From IMG/VR virus record IMGVR_UViG_3300020581_000009, positions 1-22,610 of that record: DNA of 22,610 nt. One strand, given 5' to 3'. The position numbers and the translations under genes are program-made. Of the stretch, positions 3,906-15,859 are shown piece after piece. This stretch comes from a virus. Taxonomy: Duplodnaviria > Heunggongvirae > Uroviricota > Caudoviricetes. Numbering within the stretch: position 1 is the stretch's first letter; the number at the start of each line of letters is the position of its first letter. The notes below the pieces were generated by a model. That model had not been told where the DNA came from. It saw only the letters and a list, made by a program, of their open reading frames with translations, and searched no databases.

Positions 3906-4141
3906 TACTTCCTCGCCTTGCGGTCAGATCGTGGCTTTGATCGATCGCCTTCGATCGAAATAGACGGGTACTTACGGTGCACTTTGGCGGCGATCTTTGC
4001 TTTCAACTCAGGATGAAACTGAGAAGCCCGAGCCAACGCATTACGCGAATGACTCGGGTCATTTATGGGAAAACTGCGATAGGGTCCTGCGAACGCGCTA
4101 TCCGGCAGCGCATTCCGCTGTGCCGCCGTTAGCCGCGCCAT
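3905..4141 (-). CDS. Small basic phage protein, DUF6582-like (78 aa)
   Basis: RNALPDSAFA...FPI.D..H.RNALAR resembles a widespread phage small-protein family (from recall, not searched). Confidence 0.65.
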   Translation of the reverse strand: MARLTAAQRNALPDSAFAGPYRSFPINDPSHSRNALARASQFHPELKAKIAAKVHRKYPSISIEGDRSKPRSDRKARK

Positions 4142-4150
4142 GGACGATCC

Positions 4151-4426
4151 TTAGTCGGACGGAATTCCCTTTTCCGGAGTCTCGCCTTTTGTGACCTGGG
4201 AAACTTTTGCAGCGGTTGAGAGCGGCATGAGGTTAGCCCCAATTCTGCCACCACGTGCACGGCCCTTCTTGCCGAAGTGCGCCTTGGGCTTCTCGCCCTC
4301 GCCTTTGACGGCACCACCGCGCTTCTTTTCTTTCGCCCGCTCCATCGCAGGAGACCCGACAGCATTGTACTCGTGCTCAGTAACGCTCCCGCCATCCTTG
4401 CGGGCCATGTGTCTTGCTCTTGACAT
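4151..4426 (-). CDS. Small basic protein with GG motifs (91 aa)
   Basis: GGGA RBS; RKDGGSV, KKRGGAV, RARGGRI motifs as in 19317..20033. Confidence 0.75.
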   Translation of the reverse strand: MSRARHMARKDGGSVTEHEYNAVGSPAMERAKEKKRGGAVKGEGEKPKAHFGKKGRARGGRIGANLMPLSTAAKVSQVTKGETPEKGIPSD

Positions 4427-4475
4427 ATCAGTTCCCTTTCACCCGGATCCGTGGGCTCGGCGCAGACTACTGCGA

Positions 4476-5777
4476 TTAGGTTACGGTGACGCCAGCGGCA
4501 AGCGGAACGTAGCGAATGAAGTGCTGCCACGTTCCAGTTGTAGAACCAACTGCAACGGTTATTGTGATCGTCCCCACTGGAACGAGAACAGACGATGGAA
4601 TTCCGAAGAACCCAGGTCCGTTGGCATTATAAACAGCCGCCTGAGCAACGCCGGCCGCGCTGCTTCCAACTGCGGTAATAGTGGCACCAGCCGCCGCGTT
4701 AGCGATGGAAGCCGACGCAGTCGCGATAGCAGTGGATGTTCCGATCGTCGGAACTGAGTTGTATGCTACCGTCGAAGCAGTCGCGCCGTTTGCCGTGATA
4801 CAGAGCGAGAAAAGACTCTCAACCCGAATCGGTCCGCCGGCAACCGTGAACAGAGTGTTTCCAGACACCATAACAGCAGCGGTCTTAACCGGACCAAAGG
4901 CCGGAAGGGCAGCACTCGCCGCTGGCGTAAACCCAGGGCCTACGGCTACCGCACTACCACCGCTGATCTGAGAACCAGCGGAGCCGTCAAAAACATCAAG
5001 AGACCACGTCGATCCGCCGACCGTATCAACAACGTCCTTGGAGCCGTTCGTGACTCCAGAAACGTATGTATATCCGGTAACGTTGACATCCGTGCTTGCC
5101 GTGGTGACAAACTCAACCACAGCCGTAGTAAGAATACCGTAGTACAGAATATTGATCTGTCCGTTGTCACACCCGACAAGTCGGATAGCATTGACACCGT
5201 GAGACCCAGCCGTGAACCCAAAGTATACGAGATTCACGTTCAGTCGATCCGCTGCGGCAGTTGTCAAAACGGCACGGAGAGCTTCCTTGTTAGAAGCTCC
5301 GTCGTGCCACTCAACCGGAAGACCTGGGAGACCGAAGGTGCAATCCGCCGCAGAAATCACAAACGGCGACACGATCTGGTCGATGTTGCAAACACCGACG
5401 ATATTTGCCAGAGTTACGCCAGCAGAAGCGATAGCGAACGTGGCAGCAGTAGAGGTCGAAAACGTAAATGTCGGGCGAGTAGAACCTTCGCCCTGGCCGA
5501 TAATATAGAGCCCCGGCTTTCCGGTCGTCGTGATTCCAGCCGCCGCAGAAACCGTCTCCGCATGGCCCGGCATGACCACGATGACATCGCCAGACGCAGA
5601 GGCTGTGATGGCCGTCTGGAGTCCAGCAAACGGCAGCGAGGCATCATTGCCAGGGTTGCCGTTCGATCCCGTGACAGAACTGACAAACCAGTAGGTCCCA
5701 GACGTGATCGGAAGCCCGTTGCCGATCTGCGGAACACCGAAGCTCGTTACCCCAGAGGGGAAATTGGTGTAGACCAC
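4476..5777 (-). CDS. Putative head fibre/spike protein with a beta-helix-like region (433 aa)
   Basis: GAGGAG RBS with GTG start; N-terminal ...GSNGNPG...PFAGLQTAI...GDVIVVMPGHAET pattern typical of beta-helix proteins; follows the capsid gene. Confidence 0.7.
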   Translation of the reverse strand: MVYTNFPSGVTSFGVPQIGNGLPITSGTYWFVSSVTGSNGNPGNDASLPFAGLQTAITASASGDVIVVMPGHAETVSAAAGITTTGKPGLYIIGQGEGSTRPTFTFSTSTAATFAIASAGVTLANIVGVCNIDQIVSPFVISAADCTFGLPGLPVEWHDGASNKEALRAVLTTAAADRLNVNLVYFGFTAGSHGVNAIRLVGCDNGQINILYYGILTTAVVEFVTTASTDVNVTGYTYVSGVTNGSKDVVDTVGGSTWSLDVFDGSAGSQISGGSAVAVGPGFTPAASAALPAFGPVKTAAVMVSGNTLFTVAGGPIRVESLFSLCITANGATASTVAYNSVPTIGTSTAIATASASIANAAAGATITAVGSSAAGVAQAAVYNANGPGFFGIPSSVLVPVGTITITVAVGSTTGTWQHFIRYVPLAAGVTVT

Positions 5778-5788
5778 TTTTTAGCTCC

Positions 5789-6787
5789 TCATGTCGCCGT
5801 CGCCGGCTCCGTTGTGGCCATAGACGCCACATATTGCGTAATCAGACTGACATTCCACAGAGTATGCGGTATGTCATTTTCGTCTATCAGAAGAATGCAC
5901 TTGTCACAATCTTGGATATTTACTGTCCTGCCGTTAATGGCCGGTATTTTCGTATCTAATTCCTCATTGTACGAGGTCAGTTTTCCGAAGTTCTTTAACT
6001 CGCTAAGCAGCCTTGCAACCCTAGCCTCTGCTATCGTACTATACTGACCGAGATCGATAGTCTCTTTTTCTATGTGTATTCTTGCTCGGAACCATCCACC
6101 GTGTGGATATACGCCTTGATATCCGGTCCTACTTCTTCTGGTGGCGCTCCTAGAATTGTGGCTATTCTCACTCTTTGTGGCGTCTCGTAGATTCAGCCAC
6201 CTATTGTCATTTCTAACCCTATTGATGTGATCTATCTCAAATTCAGGCCAATCTCCCGTCATATAAAACCAAGCCAGGATATGCTCTAGGTACTTTTTGT
6301 AGTCGATCCCTATGCTGCGATAGCCCTTGCCGTGAGTGGTGCCGGCTCTATCGCCTATATTAGCCACCGAAGAGGCCACCCTCCACGTAAACCAACCCGT
6401 GTCAGGCTCGTAGTAAAGAAGCTCCTTCAGCCGACCCAGCGTCAGGGCCGTGGACTTGATATCTTCTGGATCCTTATCATGAACCAGAATATTGGAGACC
6501 CTATTATCGGTCTTATTCCCATTCAGGTACTTTATGCGTCCTTTGGGCCACTCGCCATTGACATAAAGCAGCGCCAGTAGACCAGAGTTGTAATTGACCG
6601 CGTCTACCGAGATCATGACGTAGCCAAGTGAACTTATCCTGCCGGCACCAACCTTACCGTGCTTACGATCTTCCGAGGTCCACGTTCTGGCCTGCTGGCG
6701 TCTCGTAAAGATGCCGAGTTCGGCATCGTAGTGAAACAGTTCCTTCAACCTATCTTGTGTCGGCCTTGGCTTCGTATTCGTATCCAT
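5789..6787 (-). CDS. Free-standing homing endonuclease: two HNH-type domains plus an AP2-like domain (332 aa)
   Basis: Two copies of L..RLKEL..Y....G.FT.R; the second has an intact HILAW...EIDHINRVRNDNRWLNLR; followed by GYQGVY...WFRARI...DLGQY..IAEA (AP2-like). Confidence 0.9.
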   Translation of the reverse strand: MDTNTKPRPTQDRLKELFHYDAELGIFTRRQQARTWTSEDRKHGKVGAGRISSLGYVMISVDAVNYNSGLLALLYVNGEWPKGRIKYLNGNKTDNRVSNILVHDKDPEDIKSTALTLGRLKELLYYEPDTGWFTWRVASSVANIGDRAGTTHGKGYRSIGIDYKKYLEHILAWFYMTGDWPEFEIDHINRVRNDNRWLNLRDATKSENSHNSRSATRRSRTGYQGVYPHGGWFRARIHIEKETIDLGQYSTIAEARVARLLSELKNFGKLTSYNEELDTKIPAINGRTVNIQDCDKCILLIDENDIPHTLWNVSLITQYVASMATTEPATAT

Positions 6788-6792
6788 CTTGG

Positions 6793-6845
6793 TTCTCCAC
6801 TGTTTGCCTATTCTGGCAATATACAGTGGAGAAAGATTTTGTCAA
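6793..6845 (-). promoter_or_regulatory. HNH gene promoter with an RBS-sequestering hairpin
   Basis: TTGACA (6845-6840)-N16-TATATT (6823-6818). 11-bp inverted repeat TTCTCCACTGT/ACAGTGGAGAA at 6793-6803 and 6823-6833; the downstream arm contains the GGAG RBS. Confidence 0.7.
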
Positions 6846-6852
6846 GTGACCT

Positions 6853-7779
6853 TTAGCTGGTCGGTGCGGAGCCCCAGATGCTACGGGGATCGTTGTAATT
6901 AAAGCTATATCTCTCCCATCCCTTCACCATGAGATTGTCCGTGGTAAAATCGACCTGCATGTCGATCTCGAACGGCTCGCGCTCCAGGTAGAGGAGGCCC
7001 GGCTGGTCGGTCTTGAGGTACCACGGAAATGCGGAGGTGAAGAACACGTCCTTCACGTACTCGCTGATGCCGCCGGCAACAGTTGGGAGGACGTTGATGT
7101 CGTTGTTCGCCGTACCTGGGCGAAGCTCTGTCCTGAGAAGGCGGAGGGCGGTCGGCTCGTTGTTCGGGTGAATAACGAGCGTCTTTCCCGTGGCCATCAT
7201 GCGGAGGCCGGCGTTGTCGTAGAAGCCGGTCTGGATCGAGATCATCCCGTTCAGCAGGGATGCTTCGTTCAGGTCTACGTCTGTCGTAGGACGGTTTGCC
7301 CACGTAGTCGGACCGGATCCGCCAGGAGGCAGTGGGTGGGCAGTGCTCAGGAGAGCAACGCCGTCGCCGCCGACTGTCGTGTCGTAGGTCGTGCTGTTGT
7401 TGAACACGGCCGCAGCGTAGATTTCCTTGGTCTGGGCGAAAGAACGCTGGAGACCAAGGTTTGACGGGCGGAACTGCGCCTTGTAGAGGTTGTCCGCGAT
7501 CGTGTTGCGGGTGATAGCGTAACCCAAACCGATTCCAGTGTGAAGCTGGTTGTAGACCCACGCCTCACCGGAGGAGTTGTCGAAGATCGTCTGACCACCG
7601 TCCGACTTAAGCTGGGCGAGTGGCAGGAACCGCATGGAAGCAGTACGCTCCTGCGCCATCTCGGACTTGCCTTGGTCGAACAGCTTTGGCCAGATCGACG
7701 GCCACTGCTTGTATTCACCTGTGACACCACGGAGACCCGGCAGCAGGAGGTCCCGAATGGCTGCGACGTTAATTGCCAT
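6853..7779 (-). CDS. Major capsid protein (HK97 fold, Mu gpT-like family; 308 aa)
   Basis: LLLPGLRGV, GYAITRNTIADNLY, GGDGVALLSTAHPL, DLNEASL, DFTTDNLMVKGWERYSF..DPRSIWGS motifs; position downstream of scaffold and cement genes. Confidence 0.9.
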   Translation of the reverse strand: MAINVAAIRDLLLPGLRGVTGEYKQWPSIWPKLFDQGKSEMAQERTASMRFLPLAQLKSDGGQTIFDNSSGEAWVYNQLHTGIGLGYAITRNTIADNLYKAQFRPSNLGLQRSFAQTKEIYAAAVFNNSTTYDTTVGGDGVALLSTAHPLPPGGSGPTTWANRPTTDVDLNEASLLNGMISIQTGFYDNAGLRMMATGKTLVIHPNNEPTALRLLRTELRPGTANNDINVLPTVAGGISEYVKDVFFTSAFPWYLKTDQPGLLYLEREPFEIDMQVDFTTDNLMVKGWERYSFNYNDPRSIWGSAPTS

Positions 7780-8427: not shown

Positions 8428-8610
8428 GTCACCGCACGCAGCGGATCGGCCTGAAATCGGTACTGCCGAAGCAGCTATGTTTTCTGGGTGGCAAGTGTCG
8501 CGGCGCGCGACTTGCGGTCCATCCGGCTAAGCCGGGGAATCCGACCATAGTTCTCTCAGCGCGAGAGCCCTTGCGGTCCTTCAACATCGCGGCTTGCGAC
8601 ATTGGCTATT
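8428..8610 (-). ncRNA. Candidate structured 5' leader of the cement-capsid operon
   Basis: Two GGACCGCAAG repeats (8511-8520, 8570-8579), each followed by a hairpin with a GCGCY loop; CCGGC-tta-GCCGG hairpin; C(UUCG)G tetraloop hairpin GCTGC-TTCG-GCAGT. Confidence 0.5.
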
Positions 8611-8615
8611 GTCGA

Positions 8616-8644
8616 ATGTTAACTTTCTAATTACCCCCAAGCAA
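8616..8644 (-). promoter_or_regulatory. Putative sigma70 promoter for the capsid operon
   Basis: TTGCTT-N17-TAACAT in an AT-rich patch about 190 nt upstream of the cement gene. Confidence 0.5.
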
Positions 8645-8689
8645 CAGTTATTTTTAATACGGTATACCAGATAGTTATCGCGAGACCAT

Positions 8690-9058
8690 AGTTCCCCCCT
8701 TTCTGCCTTCAGTCTGGACTTAACCTAGACTGAAGCCCCTAGTGAGGGGGAGACGGGAGACAACTTTCCCATCCGCATACTTGGTGCCCTTCGCCGGTAA
8801 ACCGGACAAGTGCCAGTAGGATTTTTTCGGCTCCTACCCATGGCATCCCTCATCTAGCGGGACACCATGCTTCAACCGTTCCAGGGGGTTGCCCTGTCTG
8901 AAGGCCCAGGTCGCAAGGGGAGAGCGTTGCCTGGAATTGTTTTGGTTCGGGCAAATTGCCAGCGGCCCGCAACACCGTATGCACCTATTGACCTATAGGC
9001 ACGGGCGGTGGGGCATAACCGGCTCAGTCGGACGGGTGTCCGGGCTAGGGGACTTTTA
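8690..9058 (-). ncRNA. 3' part of a candidate large structured RNA interrupted by the outer IS
   Basis: No ORF-track entry. About nine back-to-back stems, e.g. 8707-8735, 8751-8774, 8839-8869, 8879-8936, 8984-8999, 9029-9042. Several need G.U pairs available only on the minus strand. Confidence 0.5.
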
Positions 9059-9071
9059 GGGAACTATGCAC

Positions 9072-9100
9072 TTGACATAGTTATAAATCGGGTGCATATT
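9072..9100 (+). promoter_or_regulatory. Transposase promoter overlapping the left IR of the outer IS
   Basis: TTGACA (inside the IR)-N17-CATATT. The inner IS has the same layout: TTGACA 10760-10765, N17, TGTATT 10783-10788. Confidence 0.65.
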
Positions 9101-9125
9101 GGCGGCCATAGAGAGGTTGCCCGCC

Positions 9126-10031
9126 ATGAATGTAGATCTGACAGACCCGATTTTTCACGATGAAAACAAGGCTCGCGAGCACCTTGAGGCGCAGCGCTGG
9201 CCCGATGGCCCGTTCTGCCCGCATTGCGGCGAGGTCGATAACATTTGCCGATTACATGGCAAGTCCCACCGCCCCGGCCTGTTCCAGTGCAACTCATGCC
9301 TTCAGGCATTTACGGTTATGGTCGGCTCGGTTTTCGAGTCGTCGCATATCCCGCTGACCAAGTGGGTACTGGCCTTTCACCTGATGGCCGCGAGCAAGAA
9401 GGGTATGAGTGCCCTACAGCTACAGCGGATGCTCGGCCTTGGCTCCTACCGGTCGGCTTGGTTCATGTGCCACCGTATCCGTGAGGCCATGAAGCCGGCC
9501 AAGCCAAGCCCGTTGGGTGGCCCTAAGAAGGTTGTCGAGGCAGACGAGACCTTCATCGGCGGCAAAGCCAAGAACCGCGCCTACGCCAAGAAGCCCCCAA
9601 AGAAAGAGGCGGTCTTTGCGTTGGTCGAGCGGGACGGCGAAAGCCGCTCATTCCATGTCGCCAACGTGAAGGCAAAGACCTTGCGCGAAGCCATCGTCAA
9701 GACGGCAGACCGTAAGTCATTCCTGATGACCGACGAATCGCCGTCCTACGAAACGGTTGGCGCAGAGTTTGCCCTTCACGCCACGGTCAACCATTCGCAG
9801 AATGAATACGTGCGCGCCGACTGGCACACGAACACGGTGGAAAGCCGTTTCGCTCTGATGAAGCGCGCCGTCTATGGGACGCACCATTCAGTCAGTCAGG
9901 CCCATCTGCACCGCTATTTAGTCGAATGGGACTACAAGTGGAACACCCGCAAGATGAAGGATGGGGAACGTGCCGCGCTTGCCGTCTATGGTGCCGGTGG
10001 CAAGCGTCTCACGTACCGCAATCCTAACTGA
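9126..10031 (+). CDS. IS1595-family transposase (Zn ribbon + ISXO2-like DDE domain)
   Basis: CPHC...CNSC Zn ribbon, EADETFIGG, LMTDES, HTNTVESRF, HLHRYL.EWDYKWN. ATG 9126 follows a GAGAGG RBS; the track's start at 9099 is probably too early. Confidence 0.95.
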   Translation: MNVDLTDPIFHDENKAREHLEAQRWPDGPFCPHCGEVDNICRLHGKSHRPGLFQCNSCLQAFTVMVGSVFESSHIPLTKWVLAFHLMAASKKGMSALQLQRMLGLGSYRSAWFMCHRIREAMKPAKPSPLGGPKKVVEADETFIGGKAKNRAYAKKPPKKEAVFALVERDGESRSFHVANVKAKTLREAIVKTADRKSFLMTDESPSYETVGAEFALHATVNHSQNEYVRADWHTNTVESRFALMKRAVYGTHHSVSQAHLHRYLVEWDYKWNTRKMKDGERAALAVYGAGGKRLTYRNPN

Positions 10032-10099
10032 GCCCAAGACAAATCAAGCAGAAGGCAAAGCGCTTTCTGCGGTGGAGAAAACGCAAGGGTCGGGCATGA
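10028..10099 (+). CDS. Conserved basic micro-ORF (23 aa, CTG start) coupled to the transposase stop
   Basis: LSPRQIKQKAKRFLRWRKRKGRA; a homolog at 11756..11845 is conserved through synonymous substitutions. Confidence 0.5.
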   Translation: MSPRQIKQKAKRFLRWRKRKGRA

Positions 10100-10112
10100 C
10101 GCTCGGCCCTTG
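10084..10112 (+). terminator. Hairpin/terminator after the transposase-micro-ORF unit
   Basis: CAAGGGTCGGGC-ATGAC-GCTCGGCCCTTG, a 12-bp stem with two G.U pairs on the + strand, followed by TTTCGTT. Confidence 0.65.
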
Positions 10113-10157
10113 TTTCGTTATGCTAAGTCTATAAGTTGGCTTCGGAGTTGCATAAAA

Positions 10158-10472
10158 ATGACGATCAAGACTTATGTAGCGCTCGATGATGGGACGACAG
10201 TTTTGGTCGAAACCATCGAGCACGAAGGAGACCTCTGGCTTGTGCCAAAATGGATCGCCACGTCATTCCCAAACATGCACAAGCCAGCCCGAATGATTCG
10301 GATGCCGAAAGATCGGCTCCAGGACCTCGGCCATGATTTTCTCGCAAGCGGGATTCATGCACATAAACTAGACGGTCAAGTGTCCAAAGTTTTGTTGGAC
10401 GTGGCCAACCCGTTGCAATCAGACCAGCCGTTCGACGTTCTAGAGGCTCCGGAGTTATTGATTCGTCGATGA
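10158..10472 (+). CDS. IS passenger, hypothetical protein (104 aa)
   Basis: GGAG RBS before ATG 10158; globular-looking sequence (ETIEHEGDLWLVPKW...KPARMIR). Confidence 0.65.
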   Translation: MTIKTYVALDDGTTVLVETIEHEGDLWLVPKWIATSFPNMHKPARMIRMPKDRLQDLGHDFLASGIHAHKLDGQVSKVLLDVANPLQSDQPFDVLEAPELLIRR

Positions 10473-10809
10473 ATTGTTGATTTCGAATCACTCTGTGTAC
10501 CATTTCTTCCTTCCTCAATTCCGAAAACCTCTAATTGCCCATCCCAAAGCCGAACCGAACGCCAGCACAAGCACGGGAGGGATCAGGGCAATTTTGATGG
10601 CTGTTTGAATGGCGATCTTTCTAGAGCCGAGAAGTTCAAGTTGTAAGTCAGATATAATCGTGCCCTGCGGCGGGTCAGGGGGCGGTAGGCTTAAAACCGC
10701 TACCGTACCAACCGCACCAATCCAAAGTACGGAGAGGACAATCCACCCCAATTATATCGTTGACATCACAAGCTCTATATGCTGTATTGAGGCCATCACA
10801 CAGGGATCG

Positions 10810-11763
10810 ATGGTCATGGACACGTTTTCAGCCCCGCATTTCCACAATGACGAAGCTGCCAGAGCCTATCTGGAAGCCCTGCGTTGGCCCGATGGTCCGG
10901 TCTGCCCGCATTGTGGCTCGGTCAATCACGCCTATGTGATTAATCCTGCCGGCACCTATCGCTGCGCAGAAAAGGAATGCCGGGGGAACTTCTCGGTCAC
11001 AATGAATTCTCCCATGGAGCGCAGCCATATCGCTCTGCACAAGTGGGTCCAAGCATTCCATCTAATGGCGTCCAGCAAGAAAGGCGTCTCAGCCCACCAA
11101 TTGCACCGGACTCTGGAAATCACGTATCGCTCGGCATGGTTCATGGCGCACCGCATTCGCGAGTGTATGCGATCGGGCGGTCTCGCCCCGATGGGTGGCG
11201 ATGGCCAGATCGTTGAGGCCGATGAAACATATTATGGCCCGGTCGATAACCCGCGTACCGAAACGACCATCGGTCGGCCGTTCACGAAGCGTGGCAAAAC
11301 CGGTCCAGCCAATAAGCGCCCGATCCTCGCGCTGGTCGAGCGCGGCGGCAAGGTTCGCACGTTCCATGTGCCGGTTGCCGATCAGAAAACGGTCGAGAAG
11401 ATCGTCACGGAAAACATCGCTCGCGAGTCACGGCTGCACACCGATGAAAGCCGCCTCTATTTCAACGCGGCCGATCATTTTGCCGCGCACAAGACCGTGA
11501 AGCACACCGCGAAGGAATACGCGCGGCGCGAAGACGGAGAAAACATCCACTGCAATTCTGCGGAAGGTTACTTCTCGATTTTCAAGCGCGGCATGAAGGG
11601 CATCTATCAGCACTGCGACGAAAAGCATTTACACAGATATTTGTCGGAATTCGATTTCCGCTACAATCACCGAGTCCGGCTCGGATACGACGATGGGGAA
11701 CGTGCAGCCATGGCGGTCAAGAACGCGACCGGCAAGCGGCTGACGTACCGGCTCACTGACTAA
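10810..11763 (+). CDS. IS1595-family transposase (second, divergent copy)
   Basis: CPHC...CAEKEC, EADETYYG, LHTDES, HCNSAEGYFSIFKRG, HLHRYLSEFDFRYN. True start is ATG 10810 or 10816, because the track's 10609 start lies outside the IR. Confidence 0.95.
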   Translation: MVMDTFSAPHFHNDEAARAYLEALRWPDGPVCPHCGSVNHAYVINPAGTYRCAEKECRGNFSVTMNSPMERSHIALHKWVQAFHLMASSKKGVSAHQLHRTLEITYRSAWFMAHRIRECMRSGGLAPMGGDGQIVEADETYYGPVDNPRTETTIGRPFTKRGKTGPANKRPILALVERGGKVRTFHVPVADQKTVEKIVTENIARESRLHTDESRLYFNAADHFAAHKTVKHTAKEYARREDGENIHCNSAEGYFSIFKRGMKGIYQHCDEKHLHRYLSEFDFRYNHRVRLGYDDGERAAMAVKNATGKRLTYRLTD

Positions 11764-11845
11764 GCCTGTTTTCAGGCATAAGGCCGCGCGGTTTCTGCGC
11801 TGGCGCAAGAAACTCCCCAAGAAGAAACGCAAGGGCCGAGCATGA
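11756..11845 (+). CDS. Conserved basic micro-ORF (29 aa, CTG start)
   Basis: LTKPVFRHKAARFLRWRKKLPKKKRKGRA; same register as 10028..10099, with an in-frame 18-nt indel. Confidence 0.5.
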   Translation: MTKPVFRHKAARFLRWRKKLPKKKRKGRA

Positions 11846-11859
11846 CGCTCGGCCCTTGC
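11829..11859 (+). terminator. Hairpin/terminator, homolog of 10084-10112
   Basis: GCAAGGGCCGAGC-ATGAC-GCTCGGCCCTTGC, a perfect 13-bp stem. Confidence 0.65.
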
Positions 11860-11898
11860 TTCGCTATCCTGGCGGTGCCAACCAACTAGGAGCGAGTC

Positions 11899-12105
11899 AT
11901 GGCTAAACAGATTGCGCCCGCCTACGCCCTTTCTCTCTGCGTCGTTCTCGCTCTTCATAAAACTGATCCCAAATTTCTTGCACTCTTACGGTCCACCGTG
12001 GCGGATTTCCAGAAGACTCAGCCCAAGGACGGGATAACATGGGAGACTCTTGAGCTTTTTTTGCGCGCCCTATACGACTCTGAGATTTTTGTAAAATCGT
12101 CTTAG
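11899..12105 (+). CDS. IS passenger, hypothetical protein (68 aa)
   Basis: AGGAG RBS; same slot as 10158..10472; overlapped antisense by a 72-aa ORF. Confidence 0.5.
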   Translation: MAKQIAPAYALSLCVVLALHKTDPKFLALLRSTVADFQKTQPKDGITWETLELFLRALYDSEIFVKSS

Positions 12106-12133
12106 TTTCTTTTGTTGCCATTGGTTTTCCCCG

Positions 12134-12556
12134 TTAATCCGCTACCTTGGTCCACCGAACTTCAATAGACTTGATTTTTAAATCGTCGGCCGGATTGAGC
12201 AGAGTCAGGCCGGTAGTGTCGAACTCTTTTTGCTCTTTTTGCCAAGCAATTGCGGGAACGATGTACCTCGCTGCGTTATATGCGATCACGGTTGCCTGAA
12301 AGTGGCACCCTTTGTCGCCAAGTGGTGCATGTCCCCAATCACAGTCTTTCGGTTTGATACCAATGTTAACTTGGTCGAGGCTGACTTTGTATTTCGCGGA
12401 ATACCAGATGGAATCCATCCATGTGTCGCCGGGGCCTAGCCAAACAGTAGCCACTAAGACCGCGACAAAAATCCAGCCCCCGTACAAGCCGAGCGTACCA
12501 ATAAATGCAAAAAACGCCCTCACGTTGGCTCCAAACTCATCCAGTCGTGCATTCAC
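12134..12556 (-). CDS. IS passenger, membrane-anchored protein (140 aa)
   Basis: GTG start overlaps the stop of the 2-TM gene; N-terminal hydrophobic segment followed by a soluble domain with a CDWGH...KGC Cys pair. Confidence 0.7.
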   Translation of the reverse strand: MNARLDEFGANVRAFFAFIGTLGLYGGWIFVAVLVATVWLGPGDTWMDSIWYSAKYKVSLDQVNIGIKPKDCDWGHAPLGDKGCHFQATVIAYNAARYIVPAIAWQKEQKEFDTTGLTLLNPADDLKIKSIEVRWTKVAD

Positions 12557-12855
12557 CGAAAACCTCTAAGCGCCCACCCCAATGCCGATCCTATCATCAA
12601 CAATAGGACAGGGGGGATAAGAGCAATCTCGGTAGCGGTTTGAATGGCTCGCTGTCGATTAGCGGCGGCTTCTATGACCCATGGTGCGTCTGGTAACGAA
12701 TCAGACTGCTGTTGAGCGCTTGGTTGCGGATTAAATTTCGCCCAAGGGTCAGCCGCCGGAAAATTCAATGTTGCCACGGCAATCACCGCACCGATCCATA
12801 ACACAGAAAGGACAAGCCACAGTCGGAGAAATCCGCGTGCGATTCGCAATGCCAT
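12553..12855 (-). CDS. Two-TM membrane protein (100 aa), intact
   Basis: ARGFLRLWLVLSVLWIGAV...AIQTATEIALIPPVLLLMIGSALGWALRGFR; two hydrophobic helices around a Pro/Gln-rich loop. Confidence 0.85.
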   Translation of the reverse strand: MALRIARGFLRLWLVLSVLWIGAVIAVATLNFPAADPWAKFNPQPSAQQQSDSLPDAPWVIEAAANRQRAIQTATEIALIPPVLLLMIGSALGWALRGFR

Positions 12856-12864
12856 CGCTGGTCC

Positions 12865-13026
12865 CTATCCCTTTTTACTCTTGGGACTCTTGACCGGCTT
12901 TCCTCTAGGCTTGCCGAGCTTCATTTCGGCCTGCGGCTTGGGCGGCATCTTGAACGCCGCTCGCAATGCCGCAGCCGCGCGCCGTTCGGTTTCTTCTCTT
13001 GTGAATTGGTCGAGGGGCTTGGCCAT
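12865..13026 (-). CDS. Basic peptide (53 aa), not in the ORF track
   Basis: MAKPLDQFTREETERRAAAALRAAFKMPPKPQAEMKLGKPRGKPVKSPKSKKG; homologous to 13874..14029. Confidence 0.8.
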   Translation of the reverse strand: MAKPLDQFTREETERRAAAALRAAFKMPPKPQAEMKLGKPRGKPVKSPKSKKG

Positions 13027-13639
13027 GGCTGCACCACTAAGCGAGGAGGATGAATACGATCAACAGTTCAGAAACATTTGCTTCAATATGGGAATTGCTC
13101 TTGTAGAATGGCAGCGTCTTGAAGACCAGCATTACGGGCTTTTCCGACATTTGACTGGCATCCAGCGACAAGACCTTGCTTCAATTGTGTACCATAGCAC
13201 GGAGAGCTTTGACGCGCGACGTGTAATGGTGGGTCACCTAGCGCGAGCTTTCATCGACCAATTGAACGACAAACAGCAGGCGAAAGCTCGTAGGCAAATA
13301 GCTGCTATTGATAAGGGGCTGGCAGATGCAAGCAAAAATCGCAATAAAATAGCCCACCATGCAATGGAATATAAAATCTCTTCCATGAAAGAGAACGATG
13401 ACGGCAGCATTACAATCGAATACGGGCCTCCTAGGCTGCAGCAATCATCATCCAATATATTGAGCCGGATAGAGGGGCGCGGTCCGGACCAGAAGGGGCA
13501 CGACCTGGGGGTAACCGAACTACAGACATACAGAGATGAATTTAAAAAGGTGCAGGCGCAAATTATCGCCTTCAATCACTGGCTGGCTTTAGTGACGCCT
13601 CCGCAGCCGCTGCAATCAGGCGCTCCACAATCGACATAG
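13025..13639 (+). CDS. HEPN-motif protein (204 aa), candidate RNase toxin
   Basis: GAGGGG RBS before ATG 13025; helical sequence with EWQRLE and an R-x4-H motif (RNKIAH). Confidence 0.65.
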   Translation: MAAPLSEEDEYDQQFRNICFNMGIALVEWQRLEDQHYGLFRHLTGIQRQDLASIVYHSTESFDARRVMVGHLARAFIDQLNDKQQAKARRQIAAIDKGLADASKNRNKIAHHAMEYKISSMKENDDGSITIEYGPPRLQQSSSNILSRIEGRGPDQKGHDLGVTELQTYRDEFKKVQAQIIAFNHWLALVTPPQPLQSGAPQST

Positions 13640-13799
13640 CCCCCCATGGGCCGCCAATCCAAACGCGGCCATAGAAATCCGCCTCGTCCATCAACCTCTG
13701 AACCATCCTGCCAATAGCAGCGTCGTCGGCCAGCAGATCGGCCCATTTCTGGTCAGGCTGGACTACTCCTGAATTCTGTAGCGTCGGCCTGTCGGTCAC
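13572..13799 (-). CDS. Small ORF next to the right IR of the inner IS (75 aa)
   Basis: AGGAG then GTG; same slot as 14616..14807; overlaps the HEPN gene 3' end by 68 nt. Confidence 0.4.
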   Translation of the reverse strand: MTDRPTLQNSGVVQPDQKWADLLADDAAIGRMVQRLMDEADFYGRVWIGGPWGAMSIVERLIAAAAEASLKPASD

Positions 13800-13873
13800 A
13801 TACTACTCCTAGAGCTTGTGATGTCAACGATATAATTGGGCAATCCACAATCTGAGAAATCCGCGAGCGAACC

Positions 13874-14029
13874 TCACGGGTTGGCCTTGCGTGGCTCGGG
13901 ACTCTTCTTCTTTTTCCCGGTAGGCTTATGCGGCTTTGGCGGCGTGTTCAGCGCAACGCGCAAGGCGGCGTTGGCGCGGCGTTTGGTCTCTTCGGTGCTG
14001 TAGAAGTCGGTCGGTTTGTTTTTGCTCAT
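13874..14029 (-). CDS. Basic peptide (51 aa), not in the ORF track
   Basis: MSKNKPTDFYSTEETKRRANAALRVALNTPPKPHKPTGKKKKSPEPRKANP; its TGA overlaps the GTG of the split 2-TM gene. Confidence 0.8.
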   Translation of the reverse strand: MSKNKPTDFYSTEETKRRANAALRVALNTPPKPHKPTGKKKKSPEPRKANP

Positions 14030-14044
14030 GCAGCGGATGATAGC

Positions 14045-14662
14045 ATGACGGTGGTATCAAAAAAAGCGCGAAAGGAAGCTCTGGCTCGCGCCAAGGAGCG
14101 CCTAAATGCCCGGAGCTTCGGGAATGATTCGTGGCAGGTGATACTGCAATACACCGGAGATTCCTCGAATCTTCAAACATCTGATAGAGCAACCGCGCTT
14201 GTACTGGGTGCCATCTTAGAGCAAGGGCTTGAACTTGCGATTCTTTCGCATTGCGTTCTCGGGTGGAACACGCCGGAATCGGAGTCGGAACAGAGAAAGC
14301 TATTTGGTGGAGGTGAAGACGCCCCTATAAATTTCGCCGTAAAAATTAGGCTTGCCTATGCGCTCGGCGTATATGGGCCCAACACTAGAGATGATTTGGA
14401 CCTGATGAGGCATATCCGCAACCTTTTTGCCCACGATAGGGGCCACCTGACTTTCAATGATGAAATAGCATCAAAACTTTGTGTCCAAATAAAATGGATC
14501 GATGCGTTTCCGTGGGGAGGCGTTACTGGAAATGCGCCAGCGTCTCCCCGAGATCAGTACGTAGAAACAGTCAAGCACTTTTTCCCATTTCTAACGGTGG
14601 GAGTTGGCAGGCCAATCAAATACCTGGATTCTCCTTTTGCTCTTTCTGTAATGTATGCCTAG
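14045..14662 (+). CDS. MtlR-like HEPN-superfamily protein (205 aa)
   Basis: SDRATALVLGAILEQGL...LF...NFAVKIRLAYALGV...DLDLMRHIRNLFAHD...LTFND, with R-x4-H (RNLFAH). Start at ATG 14045 is inferred. Confidence 0.7.
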   Translation: MTVVSKKARKEALARAKERLNARSFGNDSWQVILQYTGDSSNLQTSDRATALVLGAILEQGLELAILSHCVLGWNTPESESEQRKLFGGGEDAPINFAVKIRLAYALGVYGPNTRDDLDLMRHIRNLFAHDRGHLTFNDEIASKLCVQIKWIDAFPWGGVTGNAPASPRDQYVETVKHFFPFLTVGVGRPIKYLDSPFALSVMYA

Positions 14663-14807
14663 CCCTCCACATCGCTTCAAAAGCAACCAACGCGCACACT
14701 CCTGGGTCGTCGGTACATCCGATTGCAAGGAGAGCCCGTTCGCCGGCCTCAATCATTTCGTCCGTGACTTCGATTTCAGCAGAACGTGTGTCGGGTGCTT
14801 GTTCCAT
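14616..14807 (-). CDS. Small ORF next to the right IR of the outer IS (63 aa)
   Basis: GGGAG RBS; IEVTDEMIEAG motif; overlaps the HEPN gene 3' end by 47 nt. Confidence 0.6.
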   Translation of the reverse strand: MEQAPDTRSAEIEVTDEMIEAGERALLAIGCTDDPGVCALVAFEAMWRARHTLQKEQKENPGI

Positions 14808-14956
14808 CGCTCCCTATAACACAAGTTATTCTACAAAGCAAATTCTCGCGAGTAATTAAGCTCCCGTATGGACCGGGAGTTAGGCCGATGGCAAGCCAAC
14901 AACTTGCAATCTAGGCCGATTTATAACTATGTCAAGTGCATAGTTCCCGACTTTTA

Positions 14957-15065
14957 CGTTGACGGAAACACAGAAATAAGGTATATGCCCATCAACGGTC
15001 CACACGTCCCCGATCAAGGTTTATGTGGATCAGCCCGGCAAGACACCACATCTTGGCCGGGCACC
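14957..15065 (-). ncRNA. 5' part of the candidate large structured RNA
   Basis: Stems 15033-15062, 14999-15029 and 14957-14997; the last two gain G.U pairs on the minus strand. Putative promoter CTTGAT-N16-TATAGT at 15099-15072. Confidence 0.45.
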
Positions 15066-15121
15066 TTTTTGACTATACGAACGAATCGAGAACATCAAGG
15101 CATTAATTCTATTAGGGATAC

Positions 15122-15310
15122 CTAATCGCACATAACGGATTGTGATGGCGTTTTTGTCTCGTTTCTAGCGTCTATCACAATCGCCCTGATGTATGCCGAA
15201 ACGGTTACCTTGTTTTCCTCGGCAGTGCGCTGTAGCCACTCAAACGTCATCGTATCTAGCCTTGATTGGATCAATCTTCTGTTGGACTTAGGGCTAGCCT
15301 TGAGTGGCAA
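15122..15310 (-). CDS. Ribbon-helix-helix (CopG/Arc-like) DNA-binding protein (62 aa)
   Basis: GAGGAG RBS with TTG start; LIQSRLD (strand), FEWLQRTAEE (helix), TVSAYIRAIV (helix). Confidence 0.7.
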   Translation of the reverse strand: MPLKASPKSNRRLIQSRLDTMTFEWLQRTAEENKVTVSAYIRAIVIDARNETKTPSQSVMCD

Positions 15311-15316
15311 CTACCG

Positions 15317-15859
15317 TCACTCCTCGATCGGAATGCTTCGACCCCACTCAGTGTGCACACGCGGCTTCACGGCTGGATGATCCCGCGTCAAGGTCCCGTC
15401 AGGGGTCGCCCCGAGGCGCTGTTCGGCCTCCTTGACCTGTTTCCGCGCCAGAGTCCGCATTTCAGTGCGGGCCTCCTGGGTCAACTCGATTGGCCGCTCC
15501 ATGAGGATAAGTCCGTCACGGATGATATGCGGCTCCTTGTAGTCCGCCGGTAAGTACCCGACATGGCGTTTCGGATCCACAGGTTCCCAGCCCTGTTCGC
15601 GCATTGCGGCGATATAGAACGGGTCTTCCTGGCCCATTGTGGAATAGCGCTTCCACTCGTAGCTTGAGCCTTCCGGAATCTGCTCTACTGGGAAGTAGAA
15701 CCGATCCTCGCTGATTGCTGCGGCACGGCGGCGGCGGCGCTTTTCCGGGGCCGCCTCTGGTCTCACGGCTTCGTGTACGGGCTCGTGGACCGGATCGCGG
15801 TCGATTGGAGCGCGCTTTGGGCGCGTGATCTGGGGTTCGCCTTGAGCGGTGTCTGACAT
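15317..15859 (-). CDS. Conserved phage head-module protein (180 aa)
   Basis: IPEGSSYEWKR...GWEPV...IRDGLILMERP pattern; sits between scaffold and cement genes. Confidence 0.75.
   Translation of the reverse strand: MSDTAQGEPQITRPKRAPIDRDPVHEPVHEAVRPEAAPEKRRRRRAAAISEDRFYFPVEQIPEGSSYEWKRYSTMGQEDPFYIAAMREQGWEPVDPKRHVGYLPADYKEPHIIRDGLILMERPIELTQEARTEMRTLARKQVKEAEQRLGATPDGTLTRDHPAVKPRVHTEWGRSIPIEE

Follow-up and report, generated by a model that had tools for sequence, protein, structure and literature searches.

Two nested IS1595-family elements in a phage genome share a conserved accessory kit and a slot for HEPN-type proteins

The window analyzed here, a stretch of 22,610 nucleotides, is part of an 86.6-kb IMG/VR virus record (IMGVR_UViG_3300020581_000009; completeness rating 100%) and contains two insertion sequences (ISs) of the IS1595 family, one nested within the other: an outer element of 5890 bp (9059–14948) and an inner element of 3094 bp (10747–13840). 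Both carry several genes besides their transposase, among which a gene for a short basic peptide (BP) lies head-to-head with a gene for a protein of 204 or 205 residues bearing the R-x4-H motif of HEPN proteins, hereafter the HEPN-slot protein. The flanks of the pair code for a portal protein, a major-head-like protein, and an HNH endonuclease, which, together with the virus record itself, bears out the statement of an earlier model-made reading of this DNA (the first-pass annotation) that the elements ride inside a phage.

Boundaries and gene content of the two elements

The outer element is bounded by a left inverted repeat (IRL; 9059–9091, plus strand) and a right inverted repeat (IRR; 14916–14948, minus strand) that are 100% complementary over 33/33 nt, and it is flanked by an exact 8-bp target-site duplication, GACTTTTA, at 9051–9058 and 14949–14956. 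Likewise, the repeats of the inner element (IRL, 10747–10777, plus strand; IRR, 13810–13840, minus strand) are 100% complementary over 31/31 nt and lie between two exact copies of the duplication CAATCCAC (10739–10746 and 13841–13848). By rough hand estimates, the chance expectation of a perfect inverted pair of 31–33 nt in 8 kb is well below 1e-10, and the odds of an exact 8-mer duplication are about 1.5e-5 each; the perfect repeats and intact duplications claimed by the first-pass annotation are confirmed. Excision in silico of the inner element, together with one of the two CAATCCAC copies, yields a 2788-bp outer element in which an 86-codon open reading frame (ORF) for a protein with two transmembrane helices (2-TM) is whole again, which places the insertion of the inner element at about codon 12 of the outer 2-TM gene, in the same orientation. 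The 3′ part of this interrupted gene lies at 10515–10746 and its 5′ part, recovered by the splice, at 13849–13877 (both minus strand). On this basis, the outer element would first have transposed, recently, into an intergenic stretch of the phage head-gene block, and the inner element would then have transposed, also recently, into the 2-TM gene of the outer one.

The two transposase genes code for full-length proteins in which an N-terminal zinc ribbon precedes an ISXO2-like DDE domain; both score above the cut-offs of PF12760 and PF12762: the outer one (301 aa; 9126–10031, plus strand) at 3e-11 and 1e-33, the inner one (317 aa; 10810–11763, plus strand) at 2e-15 and 1.6e-32. The IS1595 model NF033547, whose cut-off is 75 bits, gives them 191.8 and 186.3 bits, respectively. 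As the terminal repeats and 8-bp duplications are also those of the family, both elements are assigned to IS1595. Clade ends read GGnAAyTATATACTTGACA..., with GGGAACTAT in the outer element, GGCAATTAT... in most relatives, and CCCAATTAT in the inner element. We take these to be ends of the ISNwi1 type of ISfinder (GGnAAyTAT..ACTTGACA; listed ggnnatTAT type), presumably a subgroup that carries passenger genes, and assume that its table accommodates the outer end and those of most relatives.

Downstream of the transposase, the outer element encodes a basic tail (..KQKAKRFLRWRKRKGRA*; 10028–10099, plus strand), a hairpin (10083–10113, plus strand) with a terminator-like stem of 13 pairs, a 104-aa ORF (10158–10472, plus strand), the interrupted 2-TM gene, with a 4-nt overlap between its start and the BP stop, the BP (51 aa, NTPPKPH motif; 13874–14029, minus strand), the HEPN-slot protein (205 aa; 14045–14662, plus strand), and a small acidic protein (ASP) of 63 aa with the motif EIEVTDEMIEAG (14616–14807, minus strand). 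The inner element follows the same general order, with its basic tail (..RFLRWRKKLPKKKRKGRA*; 11744–11845, plus strand), a hairpin with a 14-pair stem (11829–11859, plus strand), a 68-aa ORF (11899–12105, plus strand), a 140-aa protein with an N-terminal transmembrane helix (12134–12556, minus strand), the 2-TM protein (100 aa; 12553–12855, minus strand), a BP of 53 aa with the variant motif PPKPQ and a Lys-rich tail (12865–13026, minus strand), the HEPN-slot protein (204 aa; 13025–13639, plus strand), and an acidic end ORF of 75 aa (isoelectric point [pI] 4.5; 13572–13799, minus strand). The 140-aa gene overlaps the 2-TM stop by 4 nt and is the last of a BP/2-TM operon. The gene order given by the first-pass annotation is therefore right overall and needs three corrections, namely the split of the outer 2-TM gene, the additional 140-aa gene, and the status of the two micro-ORFs, which are not free-standing (see below).

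Between the two elements, the transposases are 44% identical, the BPs 51%, and the 2-TM proteins, after restoration of the outer one, 66% (56/85), and the two tails have RFLRWRK...KRKGRA in common. Conversely, BLAST detects no similarity between the two HEPN-slot proteins or between the two end ORFs, and when the two HEPN-slot families are compared by hhalign, only the RNxxxH motif aligns (probability 0.4). Both halves of the earlier comparison, homologous BP, 2-TM, and micro-ORF on the one hand and dissimilar HEPN-slot and end genes on the other, are borne out by these values.

IS-like elements with passenger genes, so far reported in the IS1595 and IS66 families only, are known as transporter ISs (TnCentral preprint 10.1101/2021.05.26.445724), those of the IS1595 family being attributed to Siguier, Gagnevin & Chandler (2009, Res Microbiol 160:232, as cited in PMC12561309). 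Like them, the window elements have a single transposase with zinc ribbon and DDE domain, inverted repeats, an 8-bp duplication, and passengers between transposase and right repeat (1.8 kb of non-transposase genes in the restored outer element, 2.1 kb in the inner one), and their passenger genes lie within the IS bounds, with no flanking IS pair. They also bear an accessory kit (BP, ASP, and a transposase tail normally read in the +1 frame) and a recurrent slot for HEPN-type proteins, and they are nested inside a phage; in the literature, we found no description of this kit, of a recurrent HEPN slot, or of such nesting inside a phage.

An accessory kit and a rapidly changing slot across the IS clade

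A scan for relatives of the transposases, with one genome per species, yielded 80 loci, mostly in Alphaproteobacteria (Hyphomicrobiales, Xanthobacteraceae, Methylocella, Bradyrhizobium, and others), to which 47 viral loci were added (127 other loci in total). Paired repeats were found in 57 of the 80, the left one about 65 nt before the transposase and the right one 0.9–4.9 kb past it, and 40 of these 57 display an exact 8-bp duplication; only one of them is a bare IS (L074, 999 bp). The kit was counted in 57 elements, that is, 55 repeat-paired loci (two dubious ones being excluded) plus the two window elements. With an iterated hidden Markov model (HMM), BP is detected in 54/57, as a peptide of about 50 aa with the TPPKPH motif, whose core reads ..RRRDEvlRRmLNTPPKPH and is followed by a Lys/Arg-rich tail. 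At 44 of 55 BP genes, a divergent partner of at least 90 aa is present, and 37 of these 44 match R-x4-H, mostly as RNxxxH near residue 100 of proteins of about 170–230 aa. These partners fall into many unrelated BLAST clusters, and in eight cases the start codons of BP and partner overlap by 2 nt (CATG), as they do in the inner element.

ASP, recognized by the motif EIEITPEMIEAG...VyrAM (EITPEMIEAG), occurs in 18/57 elements and also in L102, a viral relative described below; its place is always the right-repeat end, where it reads inward, or, in elements with an inverted module, directly after the transposase. The family includes the 63-aa ORF of the outer element and not the 75-aa acidic ORF of the inner one. 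Neither BP nor ASP has a match in Pfam, PHROG, NCBIfam, or PADLOC, and an Atlas search returned unnamed clusters only for both. A predicted complex of the outer HEPN-slot protein with ASP scored 0.01 against a mark of 0.32, a value that carries no weight for or against binding. In four relatives (L062, L067, L072, and L039), an ATG inside the right repeat (..TATGCACTTGACA) opens the ASP frame, with products that begin MHLTN or MHLTY; for such a start to be used, a transcript would have to come in from outside the element or run across a circle junction.

The layout of the window elements had been proposed to recur in other IS1595 elements defined by their repeats and duplications, as a conserved chassis with an exchangeable slot. 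This is what we observe for the pairing of BP with an RNxxxH protein, and unrelated slot genes are found even in close relatives; the 2-TM gene and the small plus-strand ORFs, which the same proposal counted as part of the blueprint, have no match in any of the 127 other loci. The kit of the clade is thus a conserved BP and RNxxxH slot, joined by ASP in many members and by a basic tail past the transposase stop, normally in the +1 frame.

This tail corresponds to the micro-ORF of the first-pass annotation, which was correctly described as conserved between the two elements but is a translated tail beyond the transposase stop that lacks its own start codon. Just beyond the transposase stop, 23 clade members encode ..LTKPxTLKQKAKRFLRWRK and a basic end. 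Codon variability in this stretch is highest at third positions (1.55 bits vs 1.04 and 0.88), and its Arg, Lys, Leu, and Phe residues are written with differing synonymous codons, which shows that the stretch is translated. Relative to the transposase, 19/23 members have the tail in the +1 frame, at a distance from GKRLTYR that varies by whole codons only; the +1 frame is also that of the tail in the inner element. In ten of the 19, a stop inside the KRLTY codons closes the +1 frame and no ATG, GTG, or TTG precedes LTKP, so that neither an upstream start nor stop-codon read-through explains the tail. From this pattern, we infer programmed +1 frameshifting late in the transposase gene, by which the protein would acquire a basic C-terminal extension; we found no description of such a frameshift for the IS1595 family in the literature. 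In the outer element, one extra A near 10040–10045 (GACAAATC vs GAC-AATC in L102) places the tail in the −1 frame, where it is probably either disabled or mis-assembled. In both window elements, the stop codon of the tail (TGA in the outer one) sits in the loop of the post-transposase hairpin, which accounts for a 46-nt block at the outer hairpin that is 89% identical to 11825–11870. Such a hairpin is common in the clade, its specific sequence being limited to the two window elements, and an Rfam search over 8500–15500 gave no match.

As for expression signals, only three sigma-70-like matches were found in 8900–15100 (shuffled controls have a mean of 4.5), all of them inside repeats and reading inward: TTGACA-17-CATATT in the outer IRL, TTGACA-16-TAGTAT in the inner IRR, and TTGACA-16-TAGATT in the outer IRR. 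A site of this kind is present in the left repeat of 27/57 clade elements, against about 3% expected by chance. A general inward promoter in the right repeat, which might have served the end gene, was considered and rejected, the site being present in only 8/57 relatives.

To what extent the slot turns over was apparent from the comparison of transposase, BP, and HEPN-slot identities in 39 elements (the artefactual, truncated transposase of L026 being ignored). Transposase identity reaches at least 75% in eight pairs, and five of these have unrelated HEPN-slot proteins: the outer window element (WOUT) with L102, L017 with L018, L062 with L072, L067 with L072, and the inner window element (WINN) with L113, the transposases being 88% identical in the first of these pairs, 83% in L062/L072, and 75% in the last. 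In two further pairs, L015/L024 and L045/L046, slot identity is only about 32%, and BP identity remains 57–82% in every one of these pairs. L102, a 2065-bp element on a viral contig, illustrates the point, with a tail, a BP, an ASP, a different protein of 242 aa with an RDDFAH motif, and no 2-TM gene. L113 has the repeat of the inner element and 73–75% transposase identity to it, but a HEPN-slot protein of the outer family (35% identical), and in L156 a transposase whose C-terminal end is 82% identical to the inner one accompanies a BP head-to-head with a protein of the inner HEPN family (41% identical). That close transposase relatives carry unrelated slot genes indicates that the slot turns over quickly, and, as nearly all occupants keep RNxxxH, that its contents belong to one fast-diverging superfamily. 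The earlier idea of a slot holding unrelated toxins has to be given up on this account, the only other occupants being a few cargoes such as a D12 adenine methylase, an SDH-type protease, and the PADLOC candidate PDC-M24B. Also among the non-HEPN occupants is an IS4/5-family transposase (DDE_Tnp_1, 4e-35) in the cargo region of another clade relative (L064:8309–9172), a further case of nesting.

The remaining genes of the window elements appear local. The 2-TM, 140-aa, 104-aa, and 68-aa proteins have no relative in the 80 genomic and 47 viral loci, and neither these four nor the 75-aa protein match Pfam, PHROGs, NCBIfam, or PADLOC. The 2-TM family has 55 database homologs, and six of them (P0002, P0004, P0006, P0010, P0016, and P0018) provided eight genomic contexts, all without an IS1595 transposase, which led us to reject 2-TM as a kit member; homolog loci with available DNA contain no match to BP or ASP and no relative of either window HEPN-slot protein. 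At 66% identity, the two window copies resemble one another more than either resembles its closest database homolog (best 60%), and more than the BPs or the transposases of the two elements do, which suggests that 2-TM genes were exchanged between the co-resident elements or captured from one local source. The four genes may accordingly be regarded as extra local cargo. In L113, a 330-aa protein with a C-terminal hydrophobic stretch and no PADLOC match (6310–7302) takes the place of the 2-TM and 140-aa genes.

One could extend this view to the whole cargo and suppose that none of it has a selectable phenotype, the shared layout reflecting nothing but the common descent of the two elements. The orphan status of the 104-aa, 68-aa, and 140-aa ORFs and the tolerated disruption of the outer 2-TM gene would fit, but we regard this explanation as very improbable, because BP, ASP, and the HEPN motif are conserved in dozens of diverged elements from different genomes and because the HEPN families, to which we now turn, are large and have an invariant motif.

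Predicted HEPN effectors and competing explanations

The R-x4-6-H motif that is conserved in HEPN proteins is present in both window slot-protein families, and a joint alignment of 37 slot proteins shows an invariant H and an R conserved in at least 90% of them. The outer protein has 52 database relatives, many of them exactly 205 aa long, and its R125, N126, and H130 are invariant in 35 sequences. Its AlphaFold model (pLDDT 83.6) has a four-helix up-down HEPN fold of MtlR-like type, as judged from Foldseek, whose best match is MtlR 6kcr (probability 1.00, TM 0.54/0.66, with a modest best E-value of 2.8e-3), followed by MtlR 3brj and YggD 3c8g and then by Csm6, the Gifsy-1 HepS, and the HepT toxin. 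The resemblance to MtlR/YggD (PF05068) extends to weak Pfam and NCBIfam hits; however, the outer protein stays below both curated cut-offs (PF05068, 20.9 vs 25.2 bits; NF008234, 19.4 vs 149 bits), has no mannitol-operon context, and belongs to a family in which RNxxxH is invariant. The inner protein has 96 relatives at E ≤0.001 among library cluster representatives; its R106 and H111 do not vary in an alignment of 41 sequences, and it is modeled (pLDDT 93.8) as a helical bundle with a β-hairpin insert. Its weak HMM hits are to AbiU2 (0.021) and CARF_HEPN (0.0017), and it is on the motif that we consider it a putative member of the HEPN superfamily.

Both families also live outside the IS, without transposase or BP. 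Relatives of the outer protein with 67–71% identity occur in this way, one of them in a Bradyrhizobium chromosome, and the inner family is represented within the kit (L156) as well as by a lone gene on an integrase-bearing island. In L099, L100, and L101 (about 4001–4618), a homolog of the outer protein (71%) lies beside a T5orf172/MUG113 gene, a 687-aa protein, and an MmeI-type restriction-modification enzyme, a neighborhood that is like a defence island.

In our view, the window elements are active-looking transporter ISs whose slot gene is a predicted stand-alone HEPN ribonuclease (RNase) effector, a joint claim to which we give a probability of about 0.55. The HEPN-slot protein would be an effector of the HepS, AbiV, or ApeA kind, silent until triggered, for instance by a phage component, and once triggered it would cut RNA and halt growth, so that the element would benefit its carrier or be costly to shed, and an arms race would drive the fast divergence and exchange of the slot. 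The closest precedent is HepS of the Gifsy-1 prophage of Salmonella (PDB 9oij/9oik), a single HEPN protein that constitutes a complete abortive-infection system: it recognizes a phage tail-tip protein and cuts tRNA, and it has no antitoxin partner (PMC13043305). As is proposed for the slot proteins, it is a HEPN protein (about 190–220 residues in the PDB chains) that is borne by a mobile element and acts as sensor and effector on its own, and the outer model matches it weakly (Foldseek probability 0.8–0.87, TM 0.36–0.45). Unlike them, HepS is a prophage moron and not the passenger of an IS, and it shares no detectable sequence similarity with them.

Several observations weigh against an effector role. 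No Pfam match at E ≤0.01 was obtained for 33/37 slot proteins (the other four match MtlR twice and DUF4145 twice), and PADLOC gave sub-threshold hits only. The inner model has no Foldseek match, and in VIA-align its matches to HepS (Z 7.7) and to the HEPN protein AF0298 (2hsb; Z 7.4) stand among generic helical bundles. Neither MtlR nor YggD, the solved structures nearest to the outer protein, was deposited as a nuclease, the first being entered as a repressor and the second as a possible transcriptional regulator. In the 86.6-kb phage record, no tyrosine integrase was detected, so that a benefit to a lysogen is not evident. Finally, that BP and an RNxxxH protein are found together almost constantly, and in one fixed head-to-head arrangement, might be a sign that the HEPN protein works for the element.

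This last point opens onto an explanation in terms of housekeeping, in which the HEPN-like protein, BP, and ASP would be accessories of transposition or regulation (e.g., an MtlR-type RNA/DNA-binding regulator acting on the transposase message or the transpososome) rather than toxins or defence proteins. A kit that is nearly universal in the clade, with a single bare IS among 57, and the nature of the nearest folds of the outer protein are what one would expect if this were so; yet machinery is not expected to be swapped for unrelated proteins between elements with transposases 83–88% identical, nor to give way to a methylase, a protease, or PDC-M24B, and the same HEPN families live outside any IS and have an invariant RNxxxH that points to catalysis. 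We therefore consider this explanation quite unlikely. For BP and ASP, an intrinsic role seems to us the better proposal even if the slot protein is an effector: both track the IS and not the HEPN family, and BP stays with other slot genes, which argues that they are element-intrinsic, possibly regulators or expression factors of the IS itself, and not dedicated antitoxins.

The latter distinction bears on the possibility of a toxin–antitoxin (TA) addiction module, in which a constitutive HEPN toxin would be held in check by a labile partner encoded in the element (ASP, BP, or an antisense RNA produced where divergent or convergent transcription units overlap) and the loss of the element, phage, or plasmid would kill the cell. 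Suggestive in this regard are the small acidic proteins (pI about 4.4–4.7), whose genes, in both window elements and many relatives, run towards the HEPN gene and overlap it at the 3′ end. So is the overlap of the BP and HEPN starts, which places the promoter and ribosome-binding site of each gene inside the other and thereby makes their 5′ transcripts mutually antisense. There is, moreover, the precedent of Tn3-family transposons, which carry TA pairs, HEPN toxins included (TnCentral preprint 10.1101/2021.05.26.445724, use case 2), with the toxin-type gene at a fixed transposon position, as here. However, those pairs are classical two-gene type II operons with a recognizable antitoxin, whereas the HEPN-slot genes have no evident cognate antitoxin and their neighbors are divergent or convergent small genes, not co-transcribed with them and common to several HEPN families. 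BP and ASP are kept across unrelated HEPN families, BP persists in elements with a methylase or a protease in the slot, and members of both HEPN families stand by themselves, with no BP, ASP, or nucleotidyltransferase (MNT)-type partner. The elements differ in the same way from type II HEPN–MNT systems, in which the MNT antitoxin is adjacent and co-transcribed: no MNT domain was found in any cargo ORF, the neighbors of the HEPN genes being BP, ASP, and membrane proteins. On balance, an addiction module is an unlikely explanation.

Returning to the stand-alone effector reading, it is plausible that the mutually antisense 5′ transcripts of BP and the HEPN gene act as a switch. A more elaborate proposal, which we find doubtful as a whole, would make the clade a dedicated shuttle of single-protein HEPN immune or toxin genes, in which BP on one side and ASP/IRR on the other would serve as flanks for recombinational swaps, the BP/HEPN starts would form an excludon-like antisense switch, and the transposase would acquire its tail by a programmed +1 frameshift. 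If the slot genes are defence or toxin effectors, the element would be among the smallest known vehicles for such genes (2–3 kb, with one transposase and a fixed kit), within an IS clade that is widespread in soil Alphaproteobacteria and can land in phage genomes. The clade would then offer a large, naturally diversified library of HEPN proteins of about 200 aa that could be mined for triggers and specificities, and the idea of toxin-carrying transposons would extend from the Tn3 family to insertion sequences. Two regulatory oddities, the tail in the +1 frame and the overlap of divergent start codons, are concrete and open to test.

The element pair in its phage

Besides the nested pair, no IS1595 transposase is present in the 86.6-kb phage record. 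Exact searches of viral contigs returned no match to either IRL, to the empty phage site, or to the uninterrupted outer junction, and a single metagenome scan returned two fragments only, one of which (L096) has an identical 33-nt IRL followed by sequence of 81% identity at a different site.

To the left of the outer element, GACCATAGTTC occurs in two direct copies (8543–8557 and 8685–8699), the second of which belongs to a 26-nt stretch (8671–8696), 362 bp from the element, that is 73% complementary to the outer IRL and 72% like the IRR end over 32 nt. This stretch could be what remains, as a solo repeat, of an older insertion; alternatively, it could be a phage repeat with a resemblance to the end of the IS. 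Right beside the outer element, on its other side, a 62-aa ORF (15122–15310, minus strand) with no PHROG match contains ..VTVSAYIRAIV.. and looks like a ribbon-helix-helix protein.

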